Assembly (NCBI GenBank): GCA_024679065.1
Contig: JAGIQG010000001.1
Location: 151,404,001 to 151,468,000 of the forward strand
Direction of reading: 5' to 3'
DNA: 64,000 bases
Source of the DNA: Sphyrna mokarran
Lineage: Eukaryota
A program made the position numbers and the translations under genes. This document shows, piece by piece, positions 9,094 through 64,000 of the stretch. Numbering within the stretch: position 1 is the stretch's first letter; each line of letters begins with the position of its first letter. Below the pieces are notes generated by a model that was given only the letters and a program-made list of their open reading frames with translations, was not told the DNA's origin and did no database searches.

Positions 9094-9450
9094 GAAAATG
9101 AGTCGTCCAAACCTCAACAAGCTCTCAAAGTGGAGCAAGAAGAGCAAGAGGAATTGGATTTCATGTTTGATGAAGAAATGGAACAGATGGAAGGACGCAA
9201 GAATACCTTCACTGATTGGTCAGATGATGACTCAGACTATGAAATTGATGATCGTGATGTGAACAAGATCCTGATTGTAACTCAGACCCCTCCACACATG
9301 CGCAAACATCCGGGTGGCGACCGTACTGGAAATCATGTTTCACGAGCAAAAATTACAACAGAGTTGGCAAAAGCTATTAATGATGGCTTATACTACTACG
9401 AACAAGACCTTTGGATGGAAGAAAATGGGCCAGAATATTCAACAATAAAG
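9094..9450 (+). CDS. LARP1B: LARP1B coding exon (EELDFMFDEEMEQ...DYEIDDRDVNKILIVTQTP...HPGGDRTG...INDGLYYYEQDLW)
   Basis: tttatttgtAG acceptor, AAG|GTgaat donor, 357 nt = 119 codons; strongly conserved LARP1-family motifs; overlaps ORF 9130..9489. Confidence 0.96.
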
Positions 9451-10525: not shown

Positions 10526-11327
10526 AAGTTTGGTAACAGTGGCCACCATATTTGACTATTAAAAGTTGTTTCACTACAAAGTAATTTCATGTAAAAGCAC
10601 TTGGAATTTTTGCGGTTTGATTTTAAAAAGTGCTTCTTGTGGCATGCTTTGAGTAGAATGGCTCTAGATTGACTCCTATGTCAGTCCTAAAATTATTTTC
10701 ATTGAAATATCATGTAAATAAAATGAATCGTATCACTGTCAACCACCCACTCTGATAAAACAAGATCAGCTCCTTGGGAAGGAGATCAAATGTGGAGTTG
10801 TAAACCTAATTTAAGGCAACAGTTTGGAGGCCTAATTTTTTTCATAAGCTGTTTTAGCATTGTGTGGCTTTCTCACCCTGCTTTTTTGCCAATAGTTGAG
10901 TTCTAACAGCAGGGTAGAATTCACATTACTAAATTTTATTGGCCAAAGTTATTCAGTGTCATTGCTTGTTTTACTCTTTAATTCTGCTGAAATATGCTGC
11001 ATTGCATTTCGTTGTAAATGCTAATGCCAGAGGAATACATAACCACTTTACTTGCATAACAGTTCATGGGAAATATCCATATCTAACTTGGAAATTTTAA
11101 TTATAATGTTGATCCTCATAATGAAAAAAGAAATTGTGTTCACTTGGTTTCTCCACCACCACCACCACCCCCAACCAAACCAGGAGAATGAAAGTCGATG
11201 CCTGTGGTCAGTCAGGTCACAACGGAGAGAGGCTCAGAAGAGGTGTAATGCAAGAGTTGCCATGATTGTTATAAAGAAAACTAAAATGGTCTTATTGATT
11301 TTTTTGCGGTGCTCTCTGATAACCAAC

Positions 11328-11625
11328 ATGGTGGCATAGTATTTGGTGCTGTTACCTCAATGCTGGGGACCCAGGTTTGATTCCTGGCTTGGGTCACTGT
11401 CTGTGTGGAGTCTACACATTCTCCACGTGGGTTTTCTCCATGTGCTCCAGTTTCCTCCCATGGTGCGAAAGATGTGCTGGCTAAGTCCATTGGCCGTGCT
11501 AAATTTTCCCAGTGTACCTGAACAGACGCTGGAGTGTGACGACTAGGGGATTTTCACAGTAACTTCATAGCAGTGTTAACGTAAGCCTATTTGTGACACC
11601 AGTAGATAAGCTTAGAAACTTTAAA
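11328..11625 (+). mobile_element. tRNA-derived V-domain SINE
   Basis: A-box-like tggcatagtatttgg, B-box-like ggtttgattcc, V-domain ctgtgtggagtctacacattctccacgtgg..ctccagtttcctccca, tail ttttcacagtaacttcatagcagtgttaacgtaagcctatttgtgac. Confidence 0.85.
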
Positions 11626-14555: not shown

Positions 14556-14945
14556 ATGGTGATTAACACTGCTGTCCCTCAGCACCAGGGACCCAGGTTC
14601 AATTCCTGGCTTGGGTCACTGTCTATGCAGAGTCTGCATGTTCTCCCCATGTCTGTATGAGTTTCCTTCCACAGTCCAAAACACATGCTGGTATGGTGCA
14701 TTGACCATGCTAAATTCTCCCTCAGTATATTCGAATAGGTACTGGAGTGTAGCAACTAGGGGATTAATGTGGTTATTTATTAGTCACAAGTAGACTTGCA
14801 TCTTCACTGCAATGAAAGCACTGTGAAAATCCCCTAATCGCCACACTGTAGGGCCTGTTCAGGTACACTGAAGGAAAATTTTTAGCACAGAAACTTCAGT
14901 GCAGTGTTAATATAGGCCTATTTGTGACGTTGATAAATTAACTTT
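14556..14945 (+). mobile_element. V-domain SINE with an antisense copy of its own tail inserted (about 14775-14887)
   Basis: head gggacccaggttcaattcctggcttgggtcactgtc, V-domain, tail interrupted by reverse-complement tail sequence. Confidence 0.8.
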
Positions 14946-15327
14946 TAAAAAAAATATGTCCATGGATCTGTGTGCTTCAAAAGCTTTCTCAAATTTCCTG
15001 TCACTCAAATGTATTCATACAGATCAGGGCATAGACAGATTTCGACCAATCCTATTGGCAATTGTCAATTGTCACATGGTTTCTTGTTATCCTTGTACCC
15101 TCTATTTTACTGCAAGTAAAATCTAACTGGAAATTGCATAAGTGTGGTGAAACACAAGTATACTAAAACAAAAAACTTTTGCTTTGAGAAGAGCAGTATC
15201 AGAATATGAGCAAAGGCTGGTATTTAAATGGTCAATTTTTTTTCCATATTACAGAGAACCTTTGTTATTATTTAAACCAAAACCATTTGCTTACAGAAAG
15301 AAATCTTGAATTGCTTGTGTCTGACAG

Positions 15328-16744: not shown

Positions 16745-19700
16745 CAGTACAAATGGGTATGATCTAGTGGCCCTTACAGAAATGTGGTTGCAGGGTGACT
16801 GGGAATTAAATATCCAGGGGTATCAGACACTTCGGAAGGATAGACAGGAAGGAAAAGGAGGTGGGGTAGCTCTGTTAATAAAAGAATGACATCAGGGCGA
16901 TAGTAAGTGACGATATAGGCTCTAAGAAGCAAAATGTGGCATCGTTGTGGATAGAGATAAGGAGTAGTAAGGGGAGAAATTCACTGGCGGGTGTGGTCTA
17001 TAGGCCCCCAAATAATAACTTTGAGATGGAGCAGGGTTAAAACATGCAAATAATGGATGCGTACAAAAATGTAACAGCAATAATCATGGGGGATTTTAAC
17101 CTGCATATTGATTGGTTGACTCAAGTCGGACATGGTGGACTTGAAGAGTTCTTAGACTGCTGTCAGAATAGTTTCCTCGAACAGTATGTTACAGAACCTA
17201 TGAGGGAGCAAGTTGTCTTGGATCTGGTCTTGTGTAATGAGACAGGTAGAATTAAAGATCTTTTGTGAGGAATCCTCTTGGGATGAGTGATCACAGTATA
17301 GTTGAATTTCTAATACAGATGGATGGTGAGAAAGTAAGGTCCCAAACCAGTGTCCTCTGCTTGAACAGAGGGGAGTACAATAGGATGAGGGTGGAACTGG
17401 CTAATGTAGACTGGGAGTGCAGACTAGTTGGTAGGACAACTGAGGAACAGTAGAGGACTTTTAAGGAGATTTTTGTCAGTACTCAGCAAAAATATATTCC
17501 AGTGATAAAGAAGGAATGTAAGAAAAGGGATAACCAGCCGTGGTTATTGAAGGAAATAAAGGAGATTATTAAATTAAAAACCGATACTTAGAGTGCCAAA
17601 ACTATTGGGGAATTGAAAGATTAGGAAAGCTTTAAAAAAAAACAAAGAATGACTAAGAAAACGATAAAGAAAGGAAAGATAGATTATGAAACTAAATTAG
17701 CGCAAAATATAAAAACTGATTCTTGAAAGTTTTTACAAATATCTAGAAAGGAAGAGAATGGCTAAAGTAAATGTTGGACTCTTAGAAGACAGGAAGGGGA
17801 ATTTAATAATGGGAAACAAGGAATTGCCGTAGGCTTTGAATAAGGTTTTCATGTCAGTCTTCATGGTAGAAGACGCAAATAGCTTACCGAACATAGGACT
17901 GTAGGGGGTGAGGTCCTTTTTAAAATGATTACTATTACTAAAGAGAGTGTGCTTGGTAGACTAATGTGATTAAAGGTAGACAAGTCCCCAAGCCCAGCTG
18001 GAATGCATCCCAGGATACGGAAAGAAATGGCGGAAGTAGTAGCAGATGCGTTAGTAATTTATCAAAATTCGCTGGACTCTGGGGAAGTGCCGGCTGATTG
18101 GAAAATAGTTAATGTTACGCCGCTGTTTAAAAAAGTAGACAAAATGTGGGTAACTACAGGCCAGTTAGCTTAACATCGTAATTGGGAAAATGCTGGAATC
18201 CATCATTAAAGAAGAAATAGCAGGATACCTGGAAAAAAATGGTTCGATCAAGCAGACGCAGCATGCATTCATGAAGGAGAGTCGTGTTTGACGAATTTAC
18301 TGGATTTTTATGAAGATGTAATGAGTGCAGTTGACAGAGGGAAACCAGTGGATATGGTGTTTTTAGATTTCCAGAAAGCATTCGATAAGGTGTCTCACAA
18401 AAGGTTGCTGTGGAAGATTAAGGTACATAGAATTGGGGGTAAAGTGTTAGCGTGGATTGAGGATTGGCTGTCTAACAGGAAGCAGAGAATTGGAATTAAT
18501 GGGTGTTTTTCTGGTTGGCAGTTGGTGACTAGTGGCATGCTGTAGGGATTGGTGCAGAAGCCTTATCTGTTTACCACATACATATACAATCTGGAGTGGG
18601 GGACCAAGTGTAGGGTAACAAAATTTGCCGATGACACACAGATGAGTGGGAAAGCGAATTGTGTGGAGGGGCGCAGAAAGTCTGCAGAGAGATTTGGATA
18701 CGCTGAGTGAGAGGGTGAAGATCTGGCAGATAAAGTATAATGTTGGCAAGTGTGAGGTTATCCACTTTAGAAGAAATAATAGTAAAATGGACTATTATTT
18801 AAATGATGAAAAACTACAACATGCTACTGTGCAGAGGGACTTGCGGGTCCTTGTGCATGAATCACAAAAACTCAGTCTGCAAGTGATCAAGAAGGCAAAT
18901 GGAATGTTGGCCTTTATTGCGAGGGGGGATGGAATATAAAAGCAGGGAGGTCTTGCTGCAGTTGCACAAGGTAATGGTGAGGCCACAACTAGAGTACTGT
19001 GTGCAATTTTGGTCCTCTTATTTGCAAAAGAATACGTTGGTCTTGGAGGAAACACAGAGAATGTTCACCAGATTGATATCAGAGATGAGGGGGGTTAGCT
19101 TATGAGGAGAGATTGAGTAGATTGGGCCTGTACTCGTTGGAGTTTAGAAGGCTGAGGGGGATCTTATAGAGACATATAAGATAACGAAGGGCCAGACAGG
19201 GTAAAAGCAGAGAGATTCTTTCCACTTCGAAAGGAAACAAGAACTAGAGGACACAGCCTGAATATAAGAGGGAGCCAATTTAGAACAGTTGAGGAAGAAC
19301 AAAGAACAAAACAGCACGGGAAACAGGCCCTTCGGTCCAACGTGTCCGTGCCGCCACCCCGATGTTCCCACCTCTACCCATGATCCCTGTCAATGTTTAT
19401 AGATCTATGGATTAAAAACCAAATTTGGGGGAATTTGTTTTGCCAATTAGCATAAGAGCACATCTTTGGGATATGGGAGGAAACCGGAGCACCCGGAGAA
19501 AACCCACGCAAGCATGGGGAGAATGCGCAAACTCCCACAGACACAGCCCAAATCCATGTATCTGCACTGCACAGCGATAATCACTGAGCTGTTGTGTTGC
19601 CCATCAAATGGTCCAGGTCAAGCATACACTAACGACATGAAGCACTAGGATACTCTCAAAAAAAAATCCAAAAGCTGTCCTCTCATGACCCATCGTGTGT

Positions 19701-20637
19701 ATGCCTCTTGTTAGACAACAAGGCGGACCAAAGCACTTGTAGGATAAAAACAAATACATTGATATCATCGTCTATTTACACACTTCCCAGGGACTTCCAA
19801 GGCTCATGATCCCTATTTTAAATCAGTTTTCTATACCCCTCCATTCCCATTCTGTTCATGTGCCCATCTAAGTATCTCTTAGATAACTCCAGAGCACCTG
19901 CCTCCACCTCTTGGCAGTGCATTCCATACCCCCACCACCCTCTGTGAAAAAACTCCCTCTAGCATCCAAATTATATCTTACCTCCCTCACCCTGAGCCTG
20001 TTACTCCTCGTGCTATTTGAATCCATCCTAGGAAAAAGCTTAACCCTGTTTACTGTATCTGTACCCCTCATAATCTTGTACACCTCTATTAGATCTCCTC
20101 TAAGTCTACGTCTTTCTACGAAAAACAGCCCCAATTTGCCTAACATCTCCTCATAACTCAGACCTTTCACCTGTAAGGGTCAGGTTCCCCATTCTTAGGC
20201 TCTAGGTCCACCACCTTACTAAGCCTCCTTCCATTATTGCCTTGTTCTCCCTGACTAAAAATGCACCTTCCAATTGCAGCTCTAGTTGCTTGACCCAAGC
20301 CCTCAGATGCTGCACCTCCAAACACTTGATGCATATGTGGACTTTCGGGAGACGTTTCGCCTCCAGGAACTCCCACATATGACACCGTACACAGGTGAGG
20401 CATCTCTCTGAGGATACTGAATCTCAGAAGTTCTCTGTCCATTGAAGCAGTGGAGACTACCTCGTTGAATATGTTTAAGTCACAGGTAGATTTCTGATCA
20501 ATGAGGGAGTTAAGGGTTATGGGAAGCAGGTGGGTAAGTGGAGCTGAACCACTTTCAGATCAGCCATGATCTTATTGAATGGCAGGACAGGCTCGAGGGG
20601 CTATCTGGCCTACCCCTGCTCCTATCTGTTATGCTGT
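16745..20637 (+). mobile_element. CR1 LINE ORF2 (APE endonuclease + RT), degenerate, interrupted at 19297-20400
   Basis: IIMGDFNLHIDW, LGMSDHSIVEF, TNLLDFYE..VDMVFLDFQKAFDKVSH, VRPQLEYCVQFWS (ORFs 17044-19105); 3'UTR resumes at ~20402 and ends ~20637. Confidence 0.93.
19297..20400 (-). mobile_element. CR1 subfamily A with long composite 3'UTR; internally deleted (ORF1 start fused to ORF2 C-terminus)
   Basis: 20167-20400 matches ORF1 start of the copy at 32694; 19868-20166 GLSYEEMLGKLGLF..RRRLRGDLIEVYKI; 19297-19820 composite 3'UTR ending in (TTCTTTG)n. Confidence 0.9.
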
Positions 20638-23539: not shown

Positions 23540-23815
23540 GCAACACAATCATTGGCACTGTTGTTGCAGTGCCAGGGACCTACGTTCAAATCTGCAGCTT
23601 GGACCACTGTCCATGCAGAGTCTGTATAGTTCCCCCATGTCTTTGGATTTCCTCCCACAGTCCAAAGATGTGCAGGTTAGGTTGATTGGCCATGCTAAAT
23701 TTTTCTTCAGTTTACTGGAAGAGATGCTGGCATGTGACAACTTGGTGATTTTTACAGTAACTTAATAGCACTGTTAATGTAAGCCTGCTTGTGACACAAA
23801 TAAGTAAATGAATAA
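23540..23815 (+). mobile_element. V-domain SINE
   Basis: gccagggacctacgttcaaatc head, ttcctcccacagtccaaagatgtgcaggttagg core, same tail as the 11328 copy. Confidence 0.8.
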
Positions 23816-32693: not shown

Positions 32694-35605
32694 ATGAAGA
32701 ACATTGCCTATTGTCAGTGTCATATGTGGGAGTTCCTGGAGGCAAGATGTCTCTCGAAAGCCCACATACGCGTCAAGTGTTTGGAGCTGCAGCATGTGAG
32801 GGCTTCGCTCAAGCAACTAGAGCGGCGATTGGAAGATGTATTTTTAGTCAGGGAGAATGAGGCAGTAATGGAAGGAAGGCATAGTAAGGTGGGTGGACCC
32901 AGAGTCAGAGGGGAATCTGACCCTTACAGGTGGGTTACTATAAGGAAGGGGAAAAAGGAGCGGGGCAACAGTCCAAAAACTTCCCCAGTGGCAGTCCCCC
33001 AAAACATTGAAGGTGGAGAAGTAAAAAAGGTAAGGCAGGAGGACCAGAGTACCTCAGAGGGGATGAAGGAGGCTAGAAAGAGATAGTGGTGGGGGATGGG
33101 AGGATTAAAGGAATAGATAGGCGGTTCTGTAGTCAAAGGCGGGACTCCAGGATGGTAGTTTGCTTCCCGGAGCAGAGGTGCAAGATGCCTCTGACAGGGT
33201 AGAGCGCATTTTGAAGGGTAAGGGGACCCAGGCAGGTGTATTTGTTCACATAGGAGAGAAGGATGTAGGAAGGAAGAGCAGGGAGGATATACGAAGACAG
33301 TTTAGGGAGTTGGGTGGATAGGCTGAACAGCAAGACGTCCAGGGTGGTGATCTTAGGGTGCTACCAGGGCCAGGAGAAATGAGATCCTACTGCTGAATGC
33401 ATGGCTGAAGGATTGGTATAGGGCAGAGGGTTTCATATGGGAAGTATATACTGGGAAGTATTTGTGAAAGAAGGGCACCTGTATAGCAGGGATGGGGAAC
33501 GCTTGAATGGGAAGGGCATGAATATCTTACCTGGGAGGTTACCTGGAGTGTTTTGACAAAGTTTAAACTAATAGGGAGGTGGGGAGGGGATGAGACCAAT
33601 AGCTGGTTAGGGAGTGAGGTGGGAGATAGAGTAAGCTTGGATGAGAGGAAATACACCAGGGAGAAGGAGGTTCTGAGTGGGCTTGGAGGTCTGGAATGCA
33701 TCTGTTTCAATGTGAGGAGCATAACAGGAAAAACGGGAGAAGGAGGTTACGAGTGGGCTTGGAGGTCTGGAGTGCGTCTGTTTCAATATAAGGAGCATAA
33801 CAGGAAAAACAGATGAACTTAGGGCCTAAGTGTTTGCGAGGAACTTGGATGTGGTTGCCATGACAGAGACATGGTTAAAGGAAGGGAAGAAGTGGCAGCT
33901 GAATATTCCTGGGTATAAGTGTTTCAGGCGTGACAGAGGAGAGGGTCCAGAAGAGGTGGGGGGAGTGGTGTTGTTAGTTAGGGACAGCATCACAGCAGTG
34001 CAGAGGGAGAACAATATAGAGGAGTTAGGAGTGGAGTTGAAGAATAGAAAAGGAGTGATTACTATGCTAGGGTGTATTTTAAGCTACTCAACAGCTCGCG
34101 GGTAGTTGAAGAAGGCATGTCTAAAGACATTTTGGATAGGTGCAGAAAGAACAGAATCGTTATAGTGGGAGATTTTAATCTCCCTGAGGTGGATTGGAAA
34201 GTACCTAGAGCTGAGGGTTCAGATGGGGAGGAATTTATAAAATGTGTACTGGAAGGATCGTTGGAGCAGTATGTAGCTAGTCTGACTAGAGAGGGGGCTA
34301 CATTGGGTTTAGTTCAGAGTAATGAGCCAGGGCAGGTGGTTGATGATGTAGTAGGGGAACATGTGGCTAACAGTGACCACAATTCTGCCTATTTTAGGAT
34401 ACAGATGGAAAAGGATGCTTGTTGCCCTAGGGGGAGAATGCTGAATTGGGGGAAGGTTAACTACAGTCAGATTAGGCAGGAACTTATGGAAACTGATTGG
34501 GAACGGTTGTTCAAGGGTATGTCCACGCTAGCCATGTGGGATTCTTGCAAGGGAATACTGAAAATGTTGCAAGAAAGATATGTGCCAGCTAAGAAGGATG
34601 GGAAAGGGTAGGATTAGAGAGCCATGGATTATTAGGGATCCAGTTCTGGTCGCCTTACTACCGGAAGGACATGGAGACTCTGGAGAGAGTGTAGAGGAAG
34701 TTTACCAGGGTGCTGCCTGGTATGGAAGGTCTGAGTTACGAGGAGAAGTTAGGCAAATTGGGACCGTTTTCCTTAGAAAGACGTAGACTTAGAGGAGATC
34801 TAATAGACGTGTGCAAGATTGAGGGGTATAGATAAACAGGGTTAAGCTTTTTCCTAGGATGGACTCGAATAGCAGGAGGGGTCACGGGCTTAAGATGAGG
34901 GGGGTACGGTATAATTTGGATGCTAGAGGGAGTTTTTTCACACAGAGGGTGGTGGGGGTATGGAATGTGCTGCCAAGTAAAGTGGTGGAGGCAGGCACTA
35001 TGGTATTATTTAAGAAATACTTAGATGGGCACATGAACAGAATAGGAATGGAGGGGTATAGAAAACTGATTTAAAATAGGGATCATGAGCCTTGGGAGTC
35101 CCTGGGAAGTGTGCAAATAGATGATGATATTGATGTATTTATTTTTATCCCACAGGTGCTTTGGTCCACCTTGTTGTCTAACAAGGGGCATACACGCGAT
35201 GGGTCGTGAGAGGGCTGCTCTTGGATTTTTTTTCAAGAGTATCCTAGTGTTTCATGACATTAGTGTACACTTGACCTGAACCATTTGATGGGCAACACGA
35301 CAGCTCAGTGACTATCGCTGTGCTGTGCAGATGCATGGATTTGGGCCTATGTCTGTGGGAGTTTGCGCATTCTCCCTGTGCTTGCGTGGGTTTTCTTCGG
35401 GTGCTCCAGTTTCCCCCCTCATCCCAAAGATGTGCTCTTAGGCTGATTGGCAGAACAAATTCTCCCTAAATTGTCTCAAATTTGTTTTTTTAATCCATAG
35501 ATCTATAAACATAGACAGGGATCATGGGTAGGAGTGGGAATATCGAGGTGGCAGCGCAGGTTCGTTGGGCCGAAGGGCCTGTTTCCCGTGCTGTTTTGTT
35601 CTTTG
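32694..35605 (+). mobile_element. CR1 subfamily A: ORF1 + endonuclease, RT core deleted, composite 3'UTR
   Basis: ORF1 CQCHMWE...KCLELQ..L.QLERRL (zinc finger/leucine zipper), EN VAMTETW, IVGDFNLP, NSDHN; jumps at ~34640 to QFWSP; 3'UTR 35075-35605. Confidence 0.92.
33659..33810 (+). repeat. 76-bp tandem duplication at the ORF2 start of the CR1
   Basis: units 33659-33734 and 33735-33810 (gggagaaggaggtt..gagtgggcttggaggtctgga..ataacaggaaaaac). Confidence 0.92.
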
Positions 35606-36011
35606 TACATTGTAATGAAAATTGACAGCATTTCTTACAGCCAGTCTTTGAAGGATTTCTCCTTGCTCCTTACAAAGAAAGCTCCTCTTCGCATGATTAT
35701 TGGCGAATAAGAAAGATCATGCATAGCTTTTACAAGGCACAATTACAATAGAATAAGAGTATTGGTGTATCAAAATTTTGAATCAATAGTTATTATTAAT
35801 ACTGCAGGATTTTTTGACTGCTCCATCATTGTCTTTGTACACTGCGAGTAAGTAGGTGATAACCATTTGAAGTGTTGTCCAACATAGAAAATGACTATTA
35901 AACCCTGCAATTAATTCCACAGTATGGTCAAGCAAAACTGCTAAGTAATTTTACATCTTTGCCATTCAGCCCTGATTCTGAAATTGTCACAGAAACACAA
36001 ACACACAACCT

Positions 36012-40695: not shown

Positions 40696-42724
40696 CTTTT
40701 CGAAGAACAGTATTAGGTTTATGAAGTAATATTAGTTTCTAAGATCCTTGTTAACTGCTTATGATGATTTTTCCATACATCTCAATGTTTAGTAGTTTCA
40801 TTCATTTTCCCTATCACAGATGTTAAATTGACCTGCTCAGCCATTGTGAATCAGCTCCATCTAACCTTTGAAAAAGTATTATTTAGCTACCCTGTAACAC
40901 ATTTAATCCTAATAGAACCATGTGGTATAATTTGTAGAATTTATTTCCCATTCTCTCAGCATACTTGTATTCTATGCCATAAATTCCAGCAATCTATCCT
41001 CCTATAGCTAATTAACTTTTGCTCATTAGAATGACTTGTCATTAGAAAGGGATACAGGTGACTGAGGACGCCAGTTTAGCATTGACAATAATGGAATGAT
41101 TTCATTCAGTTGCACCTGAGCTGACAGATGGATATTTAGTTGTAGTAGTGTTAGTGTCTTGTTTTTAAATAATTCATTATTGATTTGTTCACCCATATCC
41201 TCTTTTATATCTCAGATGAAGTACTGGACAAATATCCTACCAATTCCAGTTTATCATTTACTTATTCCGTCCTCAAGGATACGTACATTTTAACAATTCT
41301 GTTTTACAAAATACTTTTTCAGATCATTCATTACTTTTCCTCTTTCATTGGCATTTCTTAATTTATTTTTCTTGTATTCTATATTTTTATCTCTAAGTCA
41401 CATGCTTCCTCAAATTAGTCTATTGTTGCTTTGTTTTCATATTTAGAAACTTGAAGTCTTTATAAATGGTATATTTCCTTTTTAAAATAACATCCTAATC
41501 TAGTGCTGCTAATTTATCATTCCACATTCTCATCTAAACTTGCTTACAGATAAGCAAATATAGTCTTATTTGAATCAGAAGTCCTTTCGTACTTCTGATT
41601 TGGACTTTAAAACATTACAAAATAAAGTACTGAAGATCTGAAATACAAGCAGAAAATGCTGGAAATTTTCAGCACGTCAGGCAACATATGTGGAGAGTAC
41701 AGGGTGCTCCAAGCCCACAGACCTAAAATGTTAACCCCATGTCTGGTCATGTATCTTTAACTCGACTATCGGATCTTTTCTATTTACTCCTCTTTCCCAA
41801 TGAATGGGTGTGTATTTAAAATCTAGAACAATTTGTTTTCAATCTACCTAATTTGCCATTCTTAAATACCCCTTGTAATTCTGTGTGCATGTACAATTGT
41901 TCCTTAAGTTGTTGCTTTTTAACTTCTAACCCATCTCAACAGATTGAGTTAATAAAATTGGCAGAAAATTAATGATTAATACAAATCAGAGACTTTTCTG
42001 ACAAAAGAGAACTAAATGTTTCAAAGTCTGTATTTAGCCCACAATTTTAGTTCTAATTGCTAATTAACGTGATTTGAATTAGCCAGGAGATACTGAGCCA
42101 GAATCCTCCAGGTTTCAAACTCAGGTATTAATTAGATGCTATTTTCATGGAGCACTACATGTAGGCTCCATATGCCCATTTCCATTGAAGGAGTAGAGTG
42201 CATTGACTGGTATGTTGTGTTAATGGCCCAGAGACAGAAGAGAGGGCTCAGACCAGTAGTAGAGATCCTGGTGGAAGAGGGATATCCTTTTCATAGTTCC
42301 AGCACCAAGAGACTATAAAATAGTGGCAATCACTTCTGGTAGAGTTTGAAATATGTTACAAATACTGCGTTTGGCTCTAAATTGCTGGTTACCATTCAAA
42401 AAAAATAAGGATAAATACTAGCTCCAAAAATGCTGTGTATCCTCCTTAATAAATGCAAGAAATTAGCCCCTTTTTGAGACACTGGGTTATTGTTCCTAGT
42501 GCAAGCTTGGACTCCTTTAGCATGATGACATTAAGCTAATCCAATATTTCAGCTCTACCACATTAGAGTTGCATTTAGGCCAGACCAGGTAAGAATAGCA
42601 GAATTTCTATCCATAAAAGGCATTTATATCTCAGATTGTAAATTGTTATTTACAATAACAATGTTTCAGGAATATAAGTTGAAATTACAATCATGATCTT
42701 CATTGAATGGTGGAGCAGACACAA

Positions 42725-45030
42725 CAACAAAGAACAAAACAGCACAGGAAACAGGCCCTTCAGCCTAATGAGCCCATGTCGCCACCCCGCTGTTCTCACC
42801 TCTACCCGTGATCCCTACCAATGTTTATAGATCTATGGATTAAATAACCAAATTTGAGACCACTTAGGGAGATTTTGTTTTGCAAATTAGCCTAAGAGTA
42901 CATCTTTGGGATGTGGGAGGAAACTGGAGCACCTGGAGAAAACCCACGCAAGCATGGGGAGAATGTGCAAACTCCCACAGACACAGGCCTAAATCCATGC
43001 ATCTGCACAGCACAGCAATAGTCAGAGCTCTTGTGTTGCCCATCAAATGGTCCAGGTCAAGCATACACTAACAACGTGAAGCACTAGGATACTCTCAAAA
43101 AAAATCCAAGAGAAGCCCTCTCATGACCCATTGTGTGTATGCCCCTTGTTAGACAACAAGGTGGACCAAAGCACCTGTAGGATAAAAACAAGTACATCAA
43201 TATCATTGTCTATTTACACACTTCCCAGGGACTCCCAAGGCTCGTGATCCCTATTTTAAATCAGTTTTCTATACCCCTCCATTCCTGTTCTGTTCATGTA
43301 CCCATCTAAGTATTTCTTAAATAACTCCAGAGTACCTACCTCCACCACTTGGCAGTGCATTCCATATCCCCTCTGTGAAAAAACTCACTCTAACATCCAA
43401 ATTATACCTTACCCACCGCCCCCACCCCCAGCCTGAGCCCATGACCCCTTGTGCTATTCAAGTTCATTATAGGAAAAAGCTTAACCCTGTTCACTCTATC
43501 TATACCCCTCATAATCTTGTACACCTCTATTAGATCTCCTCTTTCTAAGGAAAACAGCCCCAATTTGCCTAACCTCTCCTCGTAACTCAGACCTTCCATA
43601 CCAGGCAGCATCATGGTACACCTCCTCTGCACTCTTTCCAGAGTCTCCACATTCTTCTGGTAGTAAGGCGACCAGAACTGGACACAGTATTCCAAATGAG
43701 GTCTAACCAATGTTTTATACAACTGCAACATTAAAGACCAGCTCTTGTACTCTAGACCTCTTCCTATAAAGGCTAGCGTACCATATGCTTTCTTCACAAC
43801 CTTCTCCACTTGCTCTGCCACCTTCAAAGATTTGTGCACCTGCACCCCCAGGTCTCTCTGCATTTCTATCTTCTTAGTAGGTCTACCCTTTATCATATAC
43901 CTCCCCCCTACATTCTTTCTCCCGAAATGCATCATCTCACATTTATCAGGATTGAATTCCATCTGCCATCTATCTGCCCAAGCTACCAACCTATCTATGT
44001 CCTGCTGCATCGCCTGACAATGCTCCTTGCTATCCACAAGTCCAGCCATCTTTGTATTTTCTGCAAACTTGCTGATCACTCCACTTACTCCCTCTTCCAA
44101 GTCATTTATATATAACAAATAGAAGAGGTCCCAGTACCGAACCCTGCAGCACACCACTAGTGACCAACCTCCAGCTAGAAAAACATCCTTCCACTATTAC
44201 TCTCTGTCTCCTATTACCAAGCCAGTTACTTATGCATCTAGCTACCTGTCCATGTATCCCATGAGCCTTGACATTTTCAACTAATCTCCTATGAGGGACT
44301 TTGTCAAACGCCTTACTGAAATCCACATAGACGACATCAACGGCTCGCCCTTCGTCGACTGTTTTCATCACCACCTAAAAAAATTCTACCAGATTTGTAA
44401 GGCAAGACCTCCCCTTAACAAAGCCATGCTGCATATCCCTAATCAGATCGCAATGCTCTTAAGTACCAGTACATCCTATCTCTAAGAATTCCCTCCAACA
44501 GCTTCCCTACCACTGATGTCAAACTCACTGGCCTATAATTTATCTCTACTACCCTTTTTAAACAACGATACAACATTAGCTATTCTCCAGTCCTCTGGGA
44601 TCTCACCTGTGTCCAAAGAAGAGATAAAGATTTGCATCAGAGGCCCAGCAATTTCACCTTGCACCTCCCTAAGCAGCCTGGGATAAATGCCATCAGGCCC
44701 TGGAGATTTATCAGTTTTAATGCTACCTAGAAGATCTAACACTTCCTCGGTATGGATATTTCCCTCAACTGGTCCACAGCTCCCTCAGAGACAGGAGTTG
44801 TCAACAAGCCCCTCTCCTTCGTGAATACCGATGTAAAGTATTCATTCAGGATCTCCACCATTCCCTCGGGCTCTAAGCACAGTTCCCCTCCTCTGTCCCT
44901 AAGAAGTTCAGTTTTCCCTCTAACCACCCTTTTGTTCCTAACATAGGAGTAAAAAGCCTTTGGATTTTCCTTAATCCTATCTGCCAAAACCATTTCATGC
45001 CCCCTTTTTGCCCTAAGGGACTGCTTTGTC
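42725..45030 (-). mobile_element. CR1 subfamily A, 5'-truncated, with composite 3'UTR
   Basis: ORFs 43402..44157, 44102..44374, 44533..44742, 44736..44993 ([35 protein letters not shown]); 3'UTR 42725-43260. Confidence 0.95.
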
Positions 45031-45312: not shown

Positions 45313-46287
45313 CATAGAACATAGAACATTACAGCGCAGAACAGGCCCTTCGGCCTTCGATGTAGCGCCGACCAATTAGGAAAAAGGAATGACCCTCTAA
45401 CCTAAACCATTCTCTTTTCGTCCATAAACTTATCTACTAATCTCTTAAATGCCACCAAACTTGACGCATCTGCAACTGCAGCAGGCAGGGCATTCCATAC
45501 CCTTACTACCCTCTGGGTAAAGAACCTACCTCTGACATCCGTCCTATAACTACCACCCCTTAATTTAAAGCTACGTCCTCTCGTGCTAGCTTTCTCCATC
45601 CTAGGAAAAAGGCTATCACTGTCCATCCTATCTAAACCTCTAATCATCTTATATGTTTTCAATAAAGTCTCCTCTTAGCTGCCTTCTTTCTAACAAAAAC
45701 AACCTCAAATCCCTCAGCCTCTCTTCATAAGACCTGCCCTCCATACCAGGCAACATCCTGGTAAACCTCCTCTGTACCTCTCCAATGCCTCCACATCTTT
45801 CTTATAATGTGGGGACCAGAACTGTACACAATACGCCAAGTGCGGCCGCACTAGAGTTTTGTACAGTTGCAACATGACGTTGCGGCTCCGAAATTCAATC
45901 CCCCTACCAATAAAAGCTAAGACTCCATATGCCTTCTTAACAACCTTATCGACTTGATTACCAACTTTCAGGGATCTATTAACATATACACCAAGATTCC
46001 TCTGTTCATCAACACTATTGAGAGTCCTACCATTAGCCCTATACTCTACACATTTGTTATTCCTGCAAAAGTGAATTACCTCACACTTTTCCACATTAAA
46101 CTCCATTTGCCACCTCTCGGCCCAGCTCTGCAACTTGTCCAAGTCTCTCTGCAAACTATAACACCCCTCTTCACTATCTACCACTCCTCCGACTTTGGTG
46201 TCATCCGCAAGTTTACTAATCCATCCTTCAGTACCCTCATCCAGATCACTTATAAAAATTACAAACAGCAGGGGCCCCAAAACAGAT
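45313..46287 (-). mobile_element. CR1 LINE with short conventional 3'UTR and (TTCTATG)n tail
   Basis: ORFs 45714..46280 and 45402..45662; tail ggccgaagggcctgttctgcgctgtaatgttctatgttctatg. Confidence 0.94.
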
Positions 46288-49204: not shown

Positions 49205-49987
49205 GTTGTGACTATGCAGGAAACTGGTGCAAACACCAGATAAGTAACTTTAATCTATTTTCAATATTATTTAAATGTCATTGTCAAGCCCGGAACTGAA
49301 TTCTCCTACCCCACCAGTACAAATTCACTCTGGTGTGGTTTAGAGTAGCTCCCCGTTTTTGGTGAACTTTCAGACACCCTACTGGAGTGAAGGGGCAGCA
49401 ATTGGGGTCCCCCAGGGAGTCAGGTGGGTGACACCCTAGGCATAGACACCCTGGCAATGCCCAAGGGACAAAGTGTCATGCCTGGCAGCATCTTGGCACT
49501 GGGCAATGCCAAGGGGCAGGGCCAAGACGGTGATTGTGCACTCACTCTAAATAGGTCACCTCATTCACATGAAAGCTACGCTTAACTCTCATTAGTTTAC
49601 CTCCAGCTTTCGGGTATCGTTTTGAAACCTCCAGGTTAGTTAGGTGCACCTGTTTTGTAGTTTTGCTGGGAGAGGTCCCATTGCCAGTCTGCATTCGGAT
49701 TGATCAGGACTGGAAGGAGGCCAACAAGCGGGGCTGGCTCAGGAGAATGGTCTGGTGAGGTTGGGGTCTACCTCCCATAGGGGTCAGCTAGGGTGAGATG
49801 ATCATCATTGCTGGGGGTGGGGGGATCAGTCGGGGCTGGCTAGGAATAGTTGTGAGGGCTGTGATTGGACAATGGGGGCAGGCGATGCAGGGGCAGCACT
49901 GCAGGGTTCCTAGGCTGGCCAGCAAACTGCAAACTGACAGTCCAGGGCCACTATGCGTGCACAGAGTTCTGGAACTGTCAGATTCAA

Positions 49988-50470
49988 AGAACAAAGAACA
50001 AAACAGCACGGGAAACAGGCCCTTCGGCCCAATGAACCCATGCCGCCACCCCAATGTTCCGACCTCTATCCGTGATCCCTATCAATGTTTATAGATCTAT
50101 GGATTAAATAACCAAATTTGAGACAATTTAGGGAGAATTTGTTTTGCCAATTAGCCTAAGAGCACATCTTTGGGATGTGGGAGGAAACCGGAGCTCCCGG
50201 AGAAAACCCACGCAAGCAGGGGGAGAATGCGCAAACTCCCACAGACACAGGCCCAAATCCATGTATCTGCACAGCACAGCGATAGTCACTGAGCTGTCGT
50301 GTTGCCCATCAAATGGTCCAGGTCAAGCATACACTAACAATGTGAAGCACTAGGATACTCTCGAAAAAGATCCAAGAGCAGCCCTCTCATGACCCATTGC
50401 GTGTATGCCCCTTGTTAGACAACAAGGTGGACCAAAGCACCTGTAGGATAAAAACAAATACATCAATATT
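49988..50470 (-). mobile_element. Solo composite 3'UTR of CR1 subfamily A (no ORF2 sequence)
   Basis: near-identical to 42725-43205; 5'-truncated just upstream of the structured domain. Confidence 0.93.
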
Positions 50471-52268: not shown

Positions 52269-54243
52269 GAACAAAGAACAAAGAACAACACAGCACCGGA
52301 AACAGGCCCTTCGGCCCAACGAGCCCGCGCCGCCGTCCTAACGTCTTAATGTCGTATAGGGACCAATTTGTTACCCAATCAGCCTAAGAGCACATTTTTG
52401 GGTTGTGGGAGGAAACCGGAGCACCCGGAGAAAACCCACGCAACCACGGGGAGAACGCGCAAACTCCCGCAGACACAGGCCCAAATTCATGTGTCTGCAC
52501 AGCAACAGCGATAGTCTCTGAGCTGTCATGGTGCCCATCAGTTGGTCCAGTTTAAGCATACACTGACGACGTGAAGCACTAGGCCACTCCTGAAGTAACA
52601 TCCAGGAGCTGCCCTCGCACGACCTGCCAAATACATGGACCTTGTTGGTCAACAAGGTGGACCGAACATCCTGTGGAAACAAACAGGATATTTAAACAGT
52701 CCTACTATATCCCTCTATCTGCAGACCGCTCATGTGGCTGTCCAAGAGACCCTTAAACAACCCTAGCGTGCCTGCTCCCACCACCTTACTCGGTAGTGCA
52801 TTCCACACCCCCACTACCCTTTGTGTGAAAAACTGCCCTTTAATATTTGTCTTATACATAGCCCCCCTCACCCTAAAGCCATGACCCCTCGTTCTGTCCT
52901 TTTGTAATGGTGGAAAAAGCTTACCACCATTTACTCTATCTATACCCCTCATAATCTTATATACCTCTAATAGATCCCCTCTCAGCCAACGTCTTTCAAG
53001 GGAAAACAACCCTAGTGCGTTCAATCTTTCCTCGTAAGACAGCCTTTCCATACCAGGCAGCATCCTGGTAAATCTCCTCTGCACTCTCTCCAGGGCCTCC
53101 ACATCCTTCCGGTGGTAAGGCGACTAGAACTGGATGCAGTATTCCAAGTGAGGCCTAACCAACGTTCTATACACTTGCAACATTAGACTCCTACTCTTGT
53201 ATTCTATACCTCTTCCTATGAAGGCTAACATACCATACGCTTTCTTTATCACATTCTCCACCTGTACTGACGCCTTTAGAGACTTGTCAACCTGCACCCC
53301 CAGGTCTCTCTGCATCTCTATACTCCGGATAGTTTTACCTTTTATCCTATAACTCCCCTCTACATTATTCCGGCCAAAATGCATCACCTTGCATTTATCC
53401 GGATTAAATTCCATTTGCCATCTATCTGCCCAATCTACCAGCCTATCTATGTCCTGTTGTATTGCCTGGCACTGCTCCTCAGTTCCTGCCAATCCAAGCA
53501 TCTTAGTGTCATCAACAAATTTGCTGATCACACCATCTACCCCCTCTTCCAAGTCATTTATATAAACCACAAATAGAAGAGGTCCTAGTACTGAGCCCTG
53601 TGGCACACCACTAGTGACACACCTCCAGTTGGAAAAAGAGCCTTCCACTACTACCCACTGTCTCCTCCTCCCAAGCCAGTTCTCAACCCATCTACATACC
53701 TGGCCCTGTATACCATGCGCCTTCACCTTTTCTATCAGCCTACCATGAGGAACCTTGTCAAACGCCTTACTGAAATCCATATAGATGACATCAACGGCTT
53801 GTCTTTCATCAACCGTTTTTGTCACCTCTTCAAAAAATTCCACTAGATTCGTAAGGCACGACCTCCCCTTAACGAAGCCATGCTGCGTATCCCTGATCAG
53901 ATCGCAGCGCTCCAGATGCTCATACATCCTGTCCCTGAGGATCCCCTCCATTAGCTTACCTATAACTGAAGTCAAGCTCACCGGCCTATAGTTCCCTGGG
54001 TTATCCCTCTGACCCTTTTTAAACAATGGTACCACATTTGCTATCCTCCAATCCTCTGGGACCACACCTGTGTCCAAAGAAGAGACAAAGATTTGCGTCA
54101 GAGGATCAGCAATGTCATCTCTCACCTCCCTTAGCAGTCTGGGGTAAATGCCATCAGGCCCTGGAGCTTTATAAGGCTTTATGCTGCCTAAAAGCCCCAA
54201 CACTTCTTCCCTTGTAATGGATATTTCCTTTAACGGGTCCTCA
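52269..54243 (-). mobile_element. CR1 subfamily B, young 5'-truncated copy with composite 3'UTR
   Basis: ORF 53124..54203 (359 aa RT) continues in the same frame into 52692..53102 after a single TAG at a Trp position; 3'UTR 52269-52691. Confidence 0.96.
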
Positions 54244-56294
54244 AATTCCTCAAAGCCGTGAAGACACCACTTGCTGAATTACATCACTCCCAGAAGAAAA
54301 GTTCCTGACAGAGTAAGCTTATGATGGATTGTGTTAAAGTACTTGTTTAATTGTAAATAGCTTGATGTTTATTTGTATATGATAGTAAAGGACTTATGGT
54401 GTGAGGATGTAATAGCGAGCTACTTTTCAGGTTGGTTCCAGGGTTATGTGACCCGGTTGACTAATCGGACTGCTGCATTCAAACTTTGGGACTGGGTGTG
54501 GGCTTTCCCAATCACTCTGACTCTGCAGTTGAAGTGGTCAGTAGCACATTTCTTGTACTTGTAGTTTATTCATCACAATAAATTGTTAATTACTAAACAT
54601 GGTGGTCGTCAATCCCTTGAGATATCACAATCCCAGTTCAGTTTGAACCCTTCTCGTAAAATACCCTGCTCTATAATATCTCTTAAGTTATTCAATTTTC
54701 TAGGTTTTAGACTTTTTTTTAACCTATTGCCTGAAGAGTTCCTGCAGCTTTTCATATTCGTGGGATATGGTGGCGCTGATGGCCAGCATTTCGTGCCCAT
54801 TCCTGTTGCTGTTGTTCGGAGGGCAGTTGAGAGTCAACCACATTGCTATAGCTGTAGAGTCACTTTTACGCCAGACCAAGTAAGGCATGCAGATTTGTTT
54901 CCTTAAAGGACATTAGTGAGCTGCTTGCTGATCTCCTGCTTTCATCTGTCCTTCTTGTCTGCCGGCCAACGAGATTTCATATCTTAACTTTACTGTTGGT
55001 ACTGCTTCCAGGTCAAATGGAATTCTAATGCTCGTCATTACCCTTTTACAATTGAAACAATCTCTTTAACTTTTCAGTGTTAAAGCCAATTACAGATTCC
55101 TGAGACATTTTAAAGAAATATTGTACTGCTGCTGGTCAAAGATAGACATATGGCACCCCATCCTAGAAAAAATAAAACTTTACTGTGATAACATTTTCTT
55201 TGCAACAAATGTTTGAAAGACACAAAGTTTTTAATATCATAAACACTTTAACAACCAACATTTTACATGTTGCACAGGTAACATTTTTACAAAACAAGCT
55301 TCATTACAAAAATACAAATATTATTTTACAATTTTAATAAACTCCATTAATTGAACGTATTCAAGATATTGCTACCATATCTTCCTTTTGATGGGGCAGC
55401 TTTAACTATATTGTTTTTGCATACATTAGTGTGAATTGCTACATCAAATTCCAATGAAACAGTCTTTAAATCTAGGTTAAAATGTCGTATATTGATTTTT
55501 GCATTCTTTGTGTTTTTTAAACGATCTGTATTGGATTGTGTACAGTTTGAATCCTGAGAGCGATTTTGTAGTCAGCCCAAAGTTTTACAATTTGTTTGGT
55601 TTAGTTTCTGGTGGCTCGTAGCTGTCAATATGAGTCCAAGGTGAATTTCTCGGTCATATTGCTTTTTACCTTCTGGCTACCCTCTTTTAATCTTTTTTAA
55701 AATTAGACTTTAAGTTGTGATCAGTGTTTTTGAAATACACAATGGACCACTCTGCTCAGTTTTTTAACTTTTGAACTGTATTTTGATCCACGTCTGTATG
55801 TTCTTTTAATGTCCAAGTCTTGGGAAAGAAGTTTGAATTAACCAAACATTGAATCATTCTTCATAATTGAAATGACCCCAATCTACTAAAATCCATGACT
55901 ATTTTCAACAATAAACGCCACTCATCCTGAGAGGAGTCATGTCCATTGTTTAAAAAATAGACCTATTCAATTCAGGAATGTCTTCAGATGGCCACAGGAT
56001 GTGTGTAGTGGTACCTTTTCATGAGGGATGTACCTTTTTTTTCCTCTGTTAACAATGAGTGTTTTTGAATACACAAGCTAGGTCAGTTGACCCTCAGTGG
56101 TCATTTGTGCATTAGTACATTGAAATGAAAATTTTATTTTAAAAAGAATTAAGAATCCACATGGAATAAAGTTTGTATCTCAAAGGTTATGAACATAATA
56201 TGCCTTCGTGGAGCATGACAATGCTTTGTAGTACATTATTATCGAGCAATCCTGTAATATTCAACATTGTTTCAGATCTTCATATGAATATGCA

Positions 56295-58026: not shown

Positions 58027-58989
58027 ACTACCGGAAGGACATGGAGACTGGAGAGAGTGCAGAGGAGGTTTACCAGGATGCTACCTGGTATGGAAGGTCT
58101 GAGTTACGAGGAGAGGTTAGGCAAATTGGGACTGTTTTCCTTGGAAAGACGTAGACTTAGAGAGATCTAAAAGAGGTATACAAGATTATGAGGGGTATAG
58201 ATAGAGTGAACAGGGTTAAGCTTTTTCCTAGGATGGACTCGAATAGCAGGAGGGGTCACGGGCTTAAGATGAGGGGGGTACGGTATAATTTGGATCTAGA
58301 GGGAGTTTTTTCACACAGAGGGTGGTGGGGGTATGGAATGCGCTGCCAAGTAAAGTGGTGGAGGCAGGTACTCGAGTTATTTAAGAAATACTTAGATGGG
58401 CACATGAACAGAATGGGAATGGAGGGGTATAGAAAACTGATTTAAAAATAGGGATCGTGAGCCTTGGGAGTCCCTGGGAAGTGTGTAAATAGATGATGAT
58501 ATTGATGTACTTGTTTTTATCCTACAAGTGCTTTGGTCCACCTTGTTGTCTAACAAGGGGCATACACGCGATGGTCGTGAGAGGCCTGCTCTTGGATTTT
58601 TTTTCGAGAGTATCCTAGTGCTTCACGTCGTTAGTGTACGCTTGACCTGGACCATTTGATGGGCAACATGACAGCTCAGTGACTATCGCTGTGCTGTGCA
58701 GATACATGGATTTGGGCCTGTGTCTGTGGGAGTTTGCGCATTCTCCCCGTGCTTGCGTGGGTTTTCTCCGGGTGCTCCGGTTTCCTCCCACATCCCAAAG
58801 ATGTGCTCTTAGGCTAATTGGCAAAACAAATTCTCCCTAAATTGTCTCAAATTTGGTTTTTTAATCCATAGATCTATAAACATAGACAGGGATCACGGGT
58901 AGAGATGGGAACATCGGGGTGGCAGTGCGGGGTTGTTGGGCCGAAGGGCCTGTTTCCCGTGCTGTTTTGTTCTTTGTCCTTTGTTCTTT
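58027..58989 (+). mobile_element. CR1 subfamily A 3' end with composite 3'UTR
   Basis: [24 protein letters not shown]; 3'UTR 58445-58989 ending ttttgttctttgtcctttgttcttt. Confidence 0.95.
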
Positions 58990-61522: not shown

Positions 61523-62384
61523 ATAATTGTTAATCCTCTATCCTTGAGCTTTTGAGCCAATTCTCATGTATATTTTTTTTAGGTCCCTATGTTTTTGAAA
61601 TCTCTCTTATTCTTACAAGGACTGCTCCCACTGGATCCCTATCTGGGTCCTTCAGCATTCCTTCTAACCATCAATGTGTGCTGTGCTACCTTCAGTCAGA
61701 CACTTACCTTTCTTCAGATATAGTTTTTATAGCACACATCATTCACTGGGCATGAATCACTTAAGATGATATTCTCCCACTGAGTTGGAAAAGCTAGTTC
61801 AAAGACAGTGGCAGCCTAGTAAAATCATAGTATTCAGGGCCCTCTTCTTCTGGTTTTCTGATTAACTTTTCTTCTGAAACCTTAAAATTTTCCACAGGTT
61901 GGACAGTATTTGGTAAATGTTCGTTAACAAGATCTCTTATGTAGCTTCACATTGGCTCACTTTATCATTTTGCTTACTTTATCAATTTTTTATACTGTAT
62001 CATCTTCTTGGTTTCCTCCAGCACTTTGCTAAAGCAACACTGCTCTCAGCTCCTATCCCTGAATGTTGCTTTGAATGCTAGCCTGTCCTAATCACTTACC
62101 TGAGGGAACTTACTTACTGCATCACCCACATTCGACAACTTCTTTTGTCTGCCCACCTAAGTTACTGTGTGCTTGTCTGTCAACGTTTTGATTTTATTTG
62201 TATTTGATGCTTAATTTTAATTTTACCTCCCTTTTATCTTTGTTTTACTGTTCACCTCCTTTACTTATATCTCAGACATTCTCTAATATATTTGGTTTTC
62301 CTTTTTTGATAAACTTTCCCTTAATTCTGCTGTTTCTACATATATTTACCTGGCCACTAAACAAGACTGCTTTACCCTTTTTGG

Positions 62385-62658
62385 GGACACGGTGGCACAG
62401 TGGTTAGCAGGGATCACGGTTCAATTCCTGGCTTGGGTCACTGTGCAGAGTCTGCATGTTCTCCCCTGTGTGTGTGTGTGTGTGTTTCCTCCAGATGCTC
62501 CAGTTTACTCCCATAGTCTGAAAGACATGCTGGTTAGATGCATTGGCCATGCTAAATTCTCCCTGGCAATGAAGTGTGGTGACTAGGGCTTCACAGTAAC
62601 TTCACTACAGTGTTAATATAAGCCTACTTGTGAATTAATAAATAAACTTAAACTTAAA
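62385..62658 (+). mobile_element. V-domain SINE with (GT)n expansion in the V-domain
   Basis: A-box tggcacagtgg, B-box ggttcaattcc, (TG)9 at 62467-62484, tail cacagtaacttcactacagtgttaatataagcctacttgtga..aataaataaacttaaactt. Confidence 0.88.
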
Positions 62659-62869
62659 ATTCTTGAACAGTTTGTCATTCTTAGCAACAAAACAAGGCTA
62701 AATATTCAAGGGATTTGCCTCAGATCCCACTGTTAAGGAACCTTGTCCCCAGAAACTAATACACAGTGTTCTTGTCTTCCTTGAGCTCTTGTAACCATTA
62801 CTAGAAACTTTGCCATTTTAAAGCACAAAATGTTGCTTTTTTACATTTTTAGTGTTAGTATATCTCCTT

Positions 62870-63320
62870 TAGAATCATACAATTCCTGCGGCGATGGAGG
62901 CCATTTGGCCTATTGAGTCTGTACTCACTCTGACAATCTTACCAACCTCCATCCCCATAACCCCATATATTTACCACATTAATCTTCCTAATGTACACAT
63001 CTTGGGACAACAAAAAGTCTAACACCAGGTTCAAATCCAACAGATTTATTTCATAGCACGAGCTTTCAGAGCGCTGCCCCTTCATCAACTGAGGGGCAGT
63101 GCTCTGAAAGTTCATGCTACCAATAAACCTGTTGGACTTTAACCCAGTGTTATACGACTTCTTACTGTGCCCACCCCAGTCCAACACTTGCATCTCCACA
63201 TCATCTTGGGACACTAAGGGACAATTTAACACAGCCAATCAATCTAACCTGCGTGTCTTTGGACTGTGAGAGGAAACCAGAGCACCTGGACGAAACCCAT
63301 GCAAGGGAGAACATGCAAAC
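62870..63320 (-). mobile_element. HE1-like V-SINE with CR1-type tail, interrupted by a Penelope mini-element
   Basis: tagaatcatacaattcc..ggaggccatttggcc (reverse tail); gtctttggactgtgagaggaaaccagagcacc (reverse V-domain). Confidence 0.85.
63010..63201. mobile_element. Penelope mini-element, inverted pLTRs, 12-bp TSD CATCTTGGGACA
   Basis: TSD at 62998-63009 and 63202-63213; agctttcagagcgctgcccct inverted as aggggcagtgctctgaaagtt. Confidence 0.88.
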
Positions 63321-63502
63321 CCGCCTCAAAGTCCAGGCACCCCACAGTCAAAAGTGCATTTATCTCGGGCCTATAGGTGCAGCTTATAGGCATGGAACTG
63401 GAACTGCTTCCATGTTCTGTTGGCTAACGCACTGTTTCGACCACACCGGCGTACATTTTCCATTACTCAGGTCTGGAATTGAACCCTGGTCCCTTGTGCT
63501 GT

Positions 63503-63726
63503 AAGAAGTCTCACAACACCAGGTTAGCATCCAACCAGTTTATTTGATAGTCATCTCACAAGCTTTCGGAAATGGTTCAAACCTTCCACACACCTGACGA
63601 AGGAAAACTGTTTCAGAAAGCTTGTGAGATGACTATCAAATAAACTGGTTGAACTCTAACCTGGTGTTGTGAAACTTCTTACTGTGTTTACCCCAGTCCA
63701 ATGCTGGCATCTCTACATCACGACTA
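63503..63726. mobile_element. Penelope mini-element, ~67-bp inverted arms, hammerhead core, 12-bp TSD CCCTTGTGCTGT
   Basis: arms 63501-63567 and 63616-63682; CAC-CTGACGA (63594-63600)...GAAAGCTT-GTG; TSD at 63491-63502 and 63727-63738 inside a minus-strand tRNA-like SINE head. Confidence 0.9.
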
Positions 63727-64000
63727 CCCTTGTGCTGTGAGGCAGCAGTGCTAAATATACTGAAATAGATTTTAAATTAATAAAGTGTGGGGAATGAACT
63801 AGTCCACCAATAAAATTAGGTCAAAAGATTACATGTTCATCTAAAATATCTGTCTACTAAATGTATGATTATATGATTTTGGGTAATATCATATATTACC
63901 AATTTGTAATAATTGGTAATACAATTATTACCAATTATAATTGGTATATAATTTGTTTTGAATGCATTAAAAACGTTTTAAGCATTCCCGTGTTCGTAAC

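Follow-up and report, generated by a model that had tools for sequence, protein, structure and literature searches.

The 64,000-nucleotide stretch of Sphyrna mokarran that we analysed (contig JAGIQG010000001.1, positions 151,404,001 to 151,468,000; from here on the window) contains a lineage of CR1 long interspersed elements (LINEs) that carry part of a short interspersed element (SINE) of the V-SINE type in their 3′ untranslated region (UTR). We conclude that this is a real chimeric lineage, a member of CR1 and not of the V-SINEs, with a SINE-derived and constrained block in the 3′ UTR. The lineage would be new unless a repeat library already contains it. An earlier note, made from the letters of the stretch, had proposed that an autonomous LINE captured a whole V-SINE as its own 3′ end and kept the V-domain while the promoter for RNA polymerase III (Pol III) decayed. 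The capture holds up, and parts of this description have to be changed. In the reference copy (58027-58989), the 3′ module and the end of the open reading frame (ORF) ahead of it consist of the following parts:

58027-58445, plus strand: 3′ end of the CR1 ORF2 up to the stop codon; the matching piece of the subfamily B copy hits bird CR1-type reverse transcriptase (RT) proteins
58446-58507, plus strand: spacer after the stop, in subfamily A only (60 gap columns in B)
58534-58653, plus strand: structured domain with a predicted closing helix, a short hairpin and a long rod
58661-58719, plus strand: V-SINE head remnant, tRNA-derived; A box with two mismatches, B box lost by an 18-nt deletion near 58708
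58720-58801, plus strand: V-domain core (V core); its 40-nt subdomain (58753-58792) is identical in the A majority and B
58802-58840, plus strand: 3′ extension of the V-SINE body; the first 20 nt are conserved (1/20 differ), the last 19 nt change at the silent rate (8/19)
58841-58918, plus strand: linker, 78 nt in A and 19 nt in B
58919-58989, plus strand: CR1-type 3′ stem-loop and (TTCTTTG)n-like microsatellite, no poly(A)

The head, V-domain and terminus quoted in the earlier note lie at 58661, 58721-58801 and 58938-58989, and the SINE head quoted there for comparison at 62385. The terminus is of the CR1 type that had been described, with a stem-loop followed by the (TTCTTTG)n microsatellite. 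The window sets the scope for all counts of copies, SINEs and CR1s. Searching it with a profile of the V-domain gave 12 matches, which correspond to six LINE copies and six free V-SINEs. Five of the LINE copies belong to subfamily A (2.0-6.7% from the A majority) and one to subfamily B, and the rates below compare the A majority with this single B copy. The six copies are:

58027-58989, plus strand: 5′-truncated subfamily A copy with ORF2 end and full module
32694-35613, plus strand: subfamily A copy with ORF1-like region, endonuclease, internal RT deletion near 34635, ORF2 end and full module
19296-20408, minus strand: subfamily A copy with an ORF1-like piece fused to the ORF2 end, followed by the module
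42724-44790, minus strand: subfamily A copy, frameshifted RT domain and module
49985-50469, minus strand: subfamily A copy, truncated within the UTR at a point some 160 nt upstream of the head
52269-54255, minus strand: sole subfamily B copy, 528 ORF2 codons with one internal stop, then the module

BLAST and alignment recover the same order in all six copies: structured domain, SINE-head remnant, V-domain, linker, CR1 stem-loop and microsatellite. The junctions and the B-box deletion are identical in all of them. ORF2 continues upstream of the module in five copies, and the sixth (49985-50469, minus strand) is 5′-truncated within the UTR. The copies differ in their 5′ ends, none begins at the SINE head, and a BLAST search found no match between their 3′ flanks. 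The copy at 19296-20408 (minus strand) lies inside an older V-less CR1 whose sequence resumes beyond it, and a 6-bp target duplication surrounds the whole copy; the module was thus retroposed whole. When target duplications were sought at all six copies, this one was convincing (1/6). V-SINEs and CR1s are both common in the window, and one might therefore think of SINEs that inserted independently beside LINE copies, or of segmental duplication of one locus. Such origins are refuted by the shared junction and deletion together with the different 5′ ends, the unrelated flanks and the target duplication, and we give them practically no chance. The claim that the arrangement recurs in six copies and two subfamilies, is collinear with ORF2 in five and moved as one unit is thus borne out.

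The coding part identifies the element as a CR1. The copy at 52269-54255 matches the RT family PF00078 (E 2.8e-35), and the module-ending copy at 32694-35613 matches the endonuclease family PF14529 at 34048-34608 (E 1.3e-8). Upstream of the latter, positions 32694-33500 form an ORF1-like region; neither of the two pieces scanned matches Pfam, the broken middle piece lying outside the scan. Vertebrate CR1 ORF1 is of the esterase type (PMC13343379). Among named RT proteins, those of the sharks Scyliorhinus torazame and Hemiscyllium ocellatum come closest (64% identity). A CR1-like RT that is 66-67% identical to copy B carries a Klebsiella pneumoniae label in NCBI, which is likely vertebrate contamination.

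Between subfamilies A and B, ORF2 differs at 144 of 336 silent sites (43%) and at 170 of 1156 non-synonymous sites. The corresponding rates are 0.16-0.22 (non-synonymous, dN) and 0.64-0.74 (silent, dS), with dN/dS about 0.26-0.29. Purifying selection thus acted on ORF2 as the two subfamilies diverged, and their masters were coding elements. The term autonomous would fit the lineage, but the window holds no intact copy.

To place the capture we used an RT tree of 10 of the 16 window fragments and 8 named references over 500 of 529 columns. The V-bearing copies form one clade (SH-aLRT, a likelihood-ratio branch test, 99.3), whose sisters are CR1s that lack V and share the tail type; the row e18_3pcut is a V-less fragment. 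An earlier tree with 15 of the 16 window fragments resolved A and B weakly (60%, with a tailless fragment). No V match was found in the six other CR1 3′ ends of the window, that is, the CR1 at 45313-46287, which the earlier note had named as lacking the V-domain, and five more. Most simply read, the capture happened once, on the stem that A and B share. The proposed direction from SINE to LINE is supported by the head remnant ahead of V and by the V-less sister and outgroup CR1s. Some SINE bodies arose from LINE UTRs (PMC5786205), and this LINE UTR could in principle be the source of the V-domain. However, a tRNA-type head remnant precedes V, sister and outgroup CR1s are without V, and V-SINEs range from vertebrates to cnidarians (PMC4824008) and are far older than the clade, so that we regard the reverse direction as very improbable.

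The V-domain changes far more slowly than the silent sites of its own LINE. Only 5 of 82 positions of the V core (6%) differ between the A majority and B. For the ORF2 end the count is 111/448, for the structured domain 40/154 and for the V extension 9/39; the tail differs at 5/45 and the linker, which has a 59-nt gap in addition, at 10/19. The V-domain is thus well preserved, as had been described, with conservation far above that of the flanks, and it does not diverge as fast as the linker. The V core is slower than the structured domain (p 1e-4). It is not slower than the head (5/59, 8%; Fisher p 0.74), and the 47 nt upstream of the head are similarly conserved (5/47). The statement that the promoter decayed while V was kept is therefore not supported: between the subfamilies, the head remnant is as conserved as V. 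The most conserved block spans 58614-58821, with 16 differences in 208 positions against 43/126 in the flanks, and the constrained unit is this 208-nt block including the head, not V alone. In total there are three conserved islands (58534-58557, 58614-58821 and the tail), and four intervening stretches change at the silent rate (11/26, 21/57, 8/19 and 10/19). Beyond the LINE, the V core is identical to the majority of the local free SINEs at 65 of 74 positions and to the frog V-SINE Racla (supplement of PMC5804259) at 67 of 78, counted by eye, even though 0.64-0.74 silent changes per site already separate A from B. Selection on the V-domain within the LINE is therefore likely.

One contiguous block with equally conserved head and V could also be young. 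Template switching or gene conversion would then have carried head and V from one subfamily to the other in recent times, and V could be a passenger or a recombination hot spot; a current hypothesis sees conserved domains as hot spots of recombination (PMC5804259). The 16 changes in 208 positions against 43/126 in the flanks are what such a swap would leave. However, two further conserved islands lie outside the block, and one swap does not give islands that alternate with silent-rate stretches, the first of them being predicted to pair with the second. Furthermore, the V core is 86-88% like free V-SINEs while holding LINE-specific states common to A and B, and the module as a whole has too few pair-breaking changes. 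We judge a recent swap to be rather unlikely but the main rival to the history favoured below.

The pairing evidence comes from predicted RNA folds. The structured domain has a stable predicted fold (z -4.4 in A and -2.7 in B), in which the first conserved island would pair with the second over a diverged stretch between them. For the head, two tandem hairpins are predicted (z -4.0 and -2.6). The second spans the site of the B-box deletion, and its partner bases include those at the start of V. For the 40-nt V subdomain, a hairpin with an internal loop is predicted (z -3.0 in A; -0.65 for B in a window cut 2 nt off). When the fold is taken from A alone, the 51 changes of B break 12-13 pairs instead of the 20-22 expected (p 0.003-0.006). 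These predictions support selection at the RNA level for the entire module, though not for its parts one by one.

Alternatively, the module could be constrained but act as DNA, as a factor-binding or chromatin element that aids transcription of the master copy. In the block the primary sequence is conserved and not just the pairing, and other conserved SINE domains became enhancers (PMC4824008). Against a role as DNA, the pairs are preserved over the module, and the fold of the structured domain favours the sense strand (z -5.5 vs -2.9 in A and -2.3 vs -1.4 in B). The strand signal in the fold scores from head to V is mixed. Overall, we consider a DNA element improbable, more so than a swap.

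Whether the segment ahead of V is a SINE head is central to the proposed capture. In an alignment with five of the six free V-SINEs, the copies are collinear with them from the start of the head into V, and an 18-nt gap falls on the B box. Boxes were scored with the standard A and B box consensus sequences. The A box has two mismatches in four of the six copies, a 2-nt deletion there in one copy and a further change in B; the B box is absent from its expected place in all six LINE copies and present in all six free SINEs (0-1 mismatch). The degenerate A box and the lost B box of the earlier note are thus both found, the latter deleted in every copy. A position matrix of 48 columns, built from free SINE heads only, has its best score exactly at the start equivalent to 58661 in five of six copies, and in four of six this score lies above all 123,510 background positions. 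In the three of the six copies that were compared with 3000 dinucleotide shuffles, p was 0.0013-0.0033; for three copies p was 0.004-0.017 without the best-preserved SINE and 0.19-0.24 for the matrix's 3′ half alone. A hand-drawn head hairpin is kept in 78% of cells (six free heads and four of the six copies), with two-sided changes at 4 of 10 pairs; these percentages come from related rows and hence carry no probability. The claimed alignment with the local SINE head is therefore upheld by the matrix (p about 0.002), whereas simpler tests, given below, failed. We read the segment 58661-58719 as a genuine though strongly altered tRNA-type SINE head of modest homology.

The claim of a whole V-SINE as 3′ end is upheld only for head and V. 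These are SINE-derived, but the tail is closer to three V-less LINE tails (scores 43-62) than to the tail of a local HE1-like SINE (35-36). The tail may thus be the LINE's own, with head and V inserted ahead of it. Tail sequence alone is not decisive because a donor SINE that was partnered with the lineage would have had the same tail. The linker gave a hint of being a second ORF2 end, which would favour capture of a whole SINE: uncorrected p was 0.04 against the HE1-like linker and 0.012 against one of six ORF2 ends, and another scoring gave 0.14. We also searched upstream of the head for a relic of an older CR1 tail, as expected of a read-through capture. This candidate was rejected, since 1 of 18 tests reached p<0.05 and not at the suspected site.

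Because the unit is common to six copies and changes far more slowly than silent sites, the V-domain likely does a job for its carrier RNA. With moderate confidence we favour a single capture and loss of the B box, after which selection would have kept the remnant of the head, V and the structured domain together as an RNA module that increases retrotransposition of the LINE in cis. In such a history, a V-SINE would have entered the 3′ UTR of an ancestral CR1 on one occasion. The route would have been a template switch or an insertion that started from the SINE's natural 5′ end, and the B box would then have been lost. This loss may have been favoured, as an intact promoter would make short transcripts with the LINE tail that compete for its reverse transcriptase. 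Selection on RNA structure would since have kept V, the remodelled head and the neighbouring structured domain, with a benefit that would come from RNA stability or from ribonucleoprotein handling and particle assembly, and not from Pol III transcription. More tentatively, V could be a transferable RNA module that enhances retrotransposition in cis independently of Pol III, and the CR1 lineage could be an autonomous LINE that has become dependent on a conserved SINE domain and has refolded the dead promoter into a part of this structure.

Several points weigh against the favoured history. Subfamily B is a single copy, the rates rest on one comparison, and the borders of the islands were set with the data already in view. 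Compared with the non-synonymous RT sites, the block is the more conserved, as a recent swap would also give. The preservation of pairs is borderline within the block alone (p 0.05-0.09), weak in the V core (p 0.04-0.24) and without signal in the head plus second hairpin (p 0.69), and only one pair of the structured domain changed on both sides between A and B. For the head, a hidden Markov model found no match up to E 50, 11 of 12 pairwise tests were negative (one at p<0.05), and none of six tests against a crude majority SINE sequence was significant (p 0.10-0.57). In addition, the distance from the local heads, which need not be those of the donor SINE family, may overstate the decay.

The structured domain at 58534-58653 has no Rfam match at E≤1 and no counterpart in sister CR1 ends; it may be a second acquisition. 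The Rfam scan of the window gave five matches at E≤1, all under the gathering score and none in the 3′ module. A pyrimidine tract that ends in CAG-G directly precedes the structured domain in both subfamilies (58508-58528, plus strand; 52670-52690, minus strand), although the letters differ at 11 of 26 sites; AG-G is lost in two of the five A copies. We take this pattern to resemble a splice acceptor. A conserved ORF in the UTR was rejected: beyond the stop, the frame stays open for 106 codons in B, whereas in A it is displaced by 1 nt. Searches of other organisms via this open frame of B gave none among four candidates and, in a further search, 13 weak matches, with 38.6 bits as the highest V-type score and all of them too distant to be A or B.

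Two copies have internal deletions (19296-20408, minus strand; 32694-35613, plus strand) in which the ORF1-like part is fused to the ORF2 end; their breakpoints differ and both keep the full 3′ module. They are possibly non-autonomous derivatives. A 5-nt frameshifting deletion near the ORF2 end is common to two A copies (near 19915 and near 43355, both minus strand), which may reflect a broken master mobilised in trans or repeated slippage. The surrounding sequence contains an exon matching LARP1 at 9094-9486 (plus strand, E 7e-56), with introns rich in CR1 and SINE copies. The six V-bearing copies, two on the plus and four on the minus strand, are probably in or near LARP1 introns.

The window also holds other V-SINEs. 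A free family with a non-CR1 tail occurs at 11326-11625, 14556-14950, 23540-23810 and 62384-62660, all on the plus strand, and the member at 14556 is interrupted by an inverted fragment of its own tail. A V-SINE at 62872-63760 (minus strand), which we take to be HE1-like, has a CR1-type tail and is broken by two palindromic repeats with duplicated flanks and by a third insert. Palindromic repeats hold hammerhead-like core motifs (61436, plus strand; 63088, minus strand; 63594, plus strand), and hammerhead motifs are known from Penelope-type repeats. The Rfam matches of the palindromic repeats are chance matches to miRNA hairpins under the gathering score. When genomes of bacteria and archaea were searched with the V core, two loci matched, both plain SINE-like elements, with no LINE module within the 551 bases read of each. 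They lie in contigs of bacterial metagenome-assembled genomes titled Sedimenticola (L001, 2440-2650, minus strand; L002, 2385-2620, plus strand), and in one comparison the 40-nt V subdomain was identical to such an element at 35 of 39 positions. These animal-type V-SINEs are likely host DNA in the assembly.

Compared to known systems, the CR1 unit shares with V-SINEs the order of head, V-domain of about 80 bp and LINE-type tail, and the predicted hairpin with internal loop of the 40-nt subdomain, as in PMC4758252. In sharks, the V-SINE HE1 is paired with the LINE HER1 (PMC3747384). Unlike V-SINEs, the CR1 unit has no B box, no copy starts at the head, and it sits downstream of ORF2 and moves with it. 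With vertebrate CR1s it shares the endonuclease and RT of ORF2, the 3′ stem-loop with microsatellite and frequent 5′ truncation; unlike them, it has a 3′ UTR of about 420-540 nt with structured domain and SINE-derived block, compared to about 100 nt in the sister at 45313-46287. The MER6 miniature inverted-repeat transposable element is also a mobile element that spreads a captured V-SINE segment (PMC6887750). It is, however, a non-autonomous DNA transposon without SINE head and with neutral-like copy rates, whereas the CR1 lineage is RNA-based, coding and keeps V between diverged subfamilies. LINEs with SINE-related or small-RNA-like sequence in a UTR include Ingi-3_AC and RTE-1_DAn (PMC5786205) and also Tx1, which shares its U1/U2 ends with SINEU (PMC4758252). 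In these cases the sequences are 5′ UTR or tRNA-like pieces and not a conserved SINE central domain beside the 3′ recognition site.

The accessible text of PMC5804259 (2016) reports that no such conserved domains were found in LINEs, and in that of PMC5786205 the comparison of Repbase SINEs with LINEs links only RTE and Vingi to SINE bodies. The supplement of PMC13343379 (shark CR1s) has no match to three motifs; its consensus set on Zenodo may hold the family. Our literature search found no paper on a LINE with a V-domain, with most subscription papers outside its reach. BovB elements also have SINE-derived ends, a point not confirmed in the literature searched.

The conservation of SINE central domains over hundreds of millions of years still awaits an explanation. 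In a coding LINE that keeps V although the Pol III promoter is gone, the domain is uncoupled from SINE transcription, and the silent sites of the LINE serve as an internal clock for measuring the constraint on V. As V adjoins its own reverse transcriptase, deletion and compensatory mutants are directly testable. If the more tentative reading is true, this would be the first LINE known with a SINE highly conserved domain, and it would provide a self-contained assay for the function of that domain.
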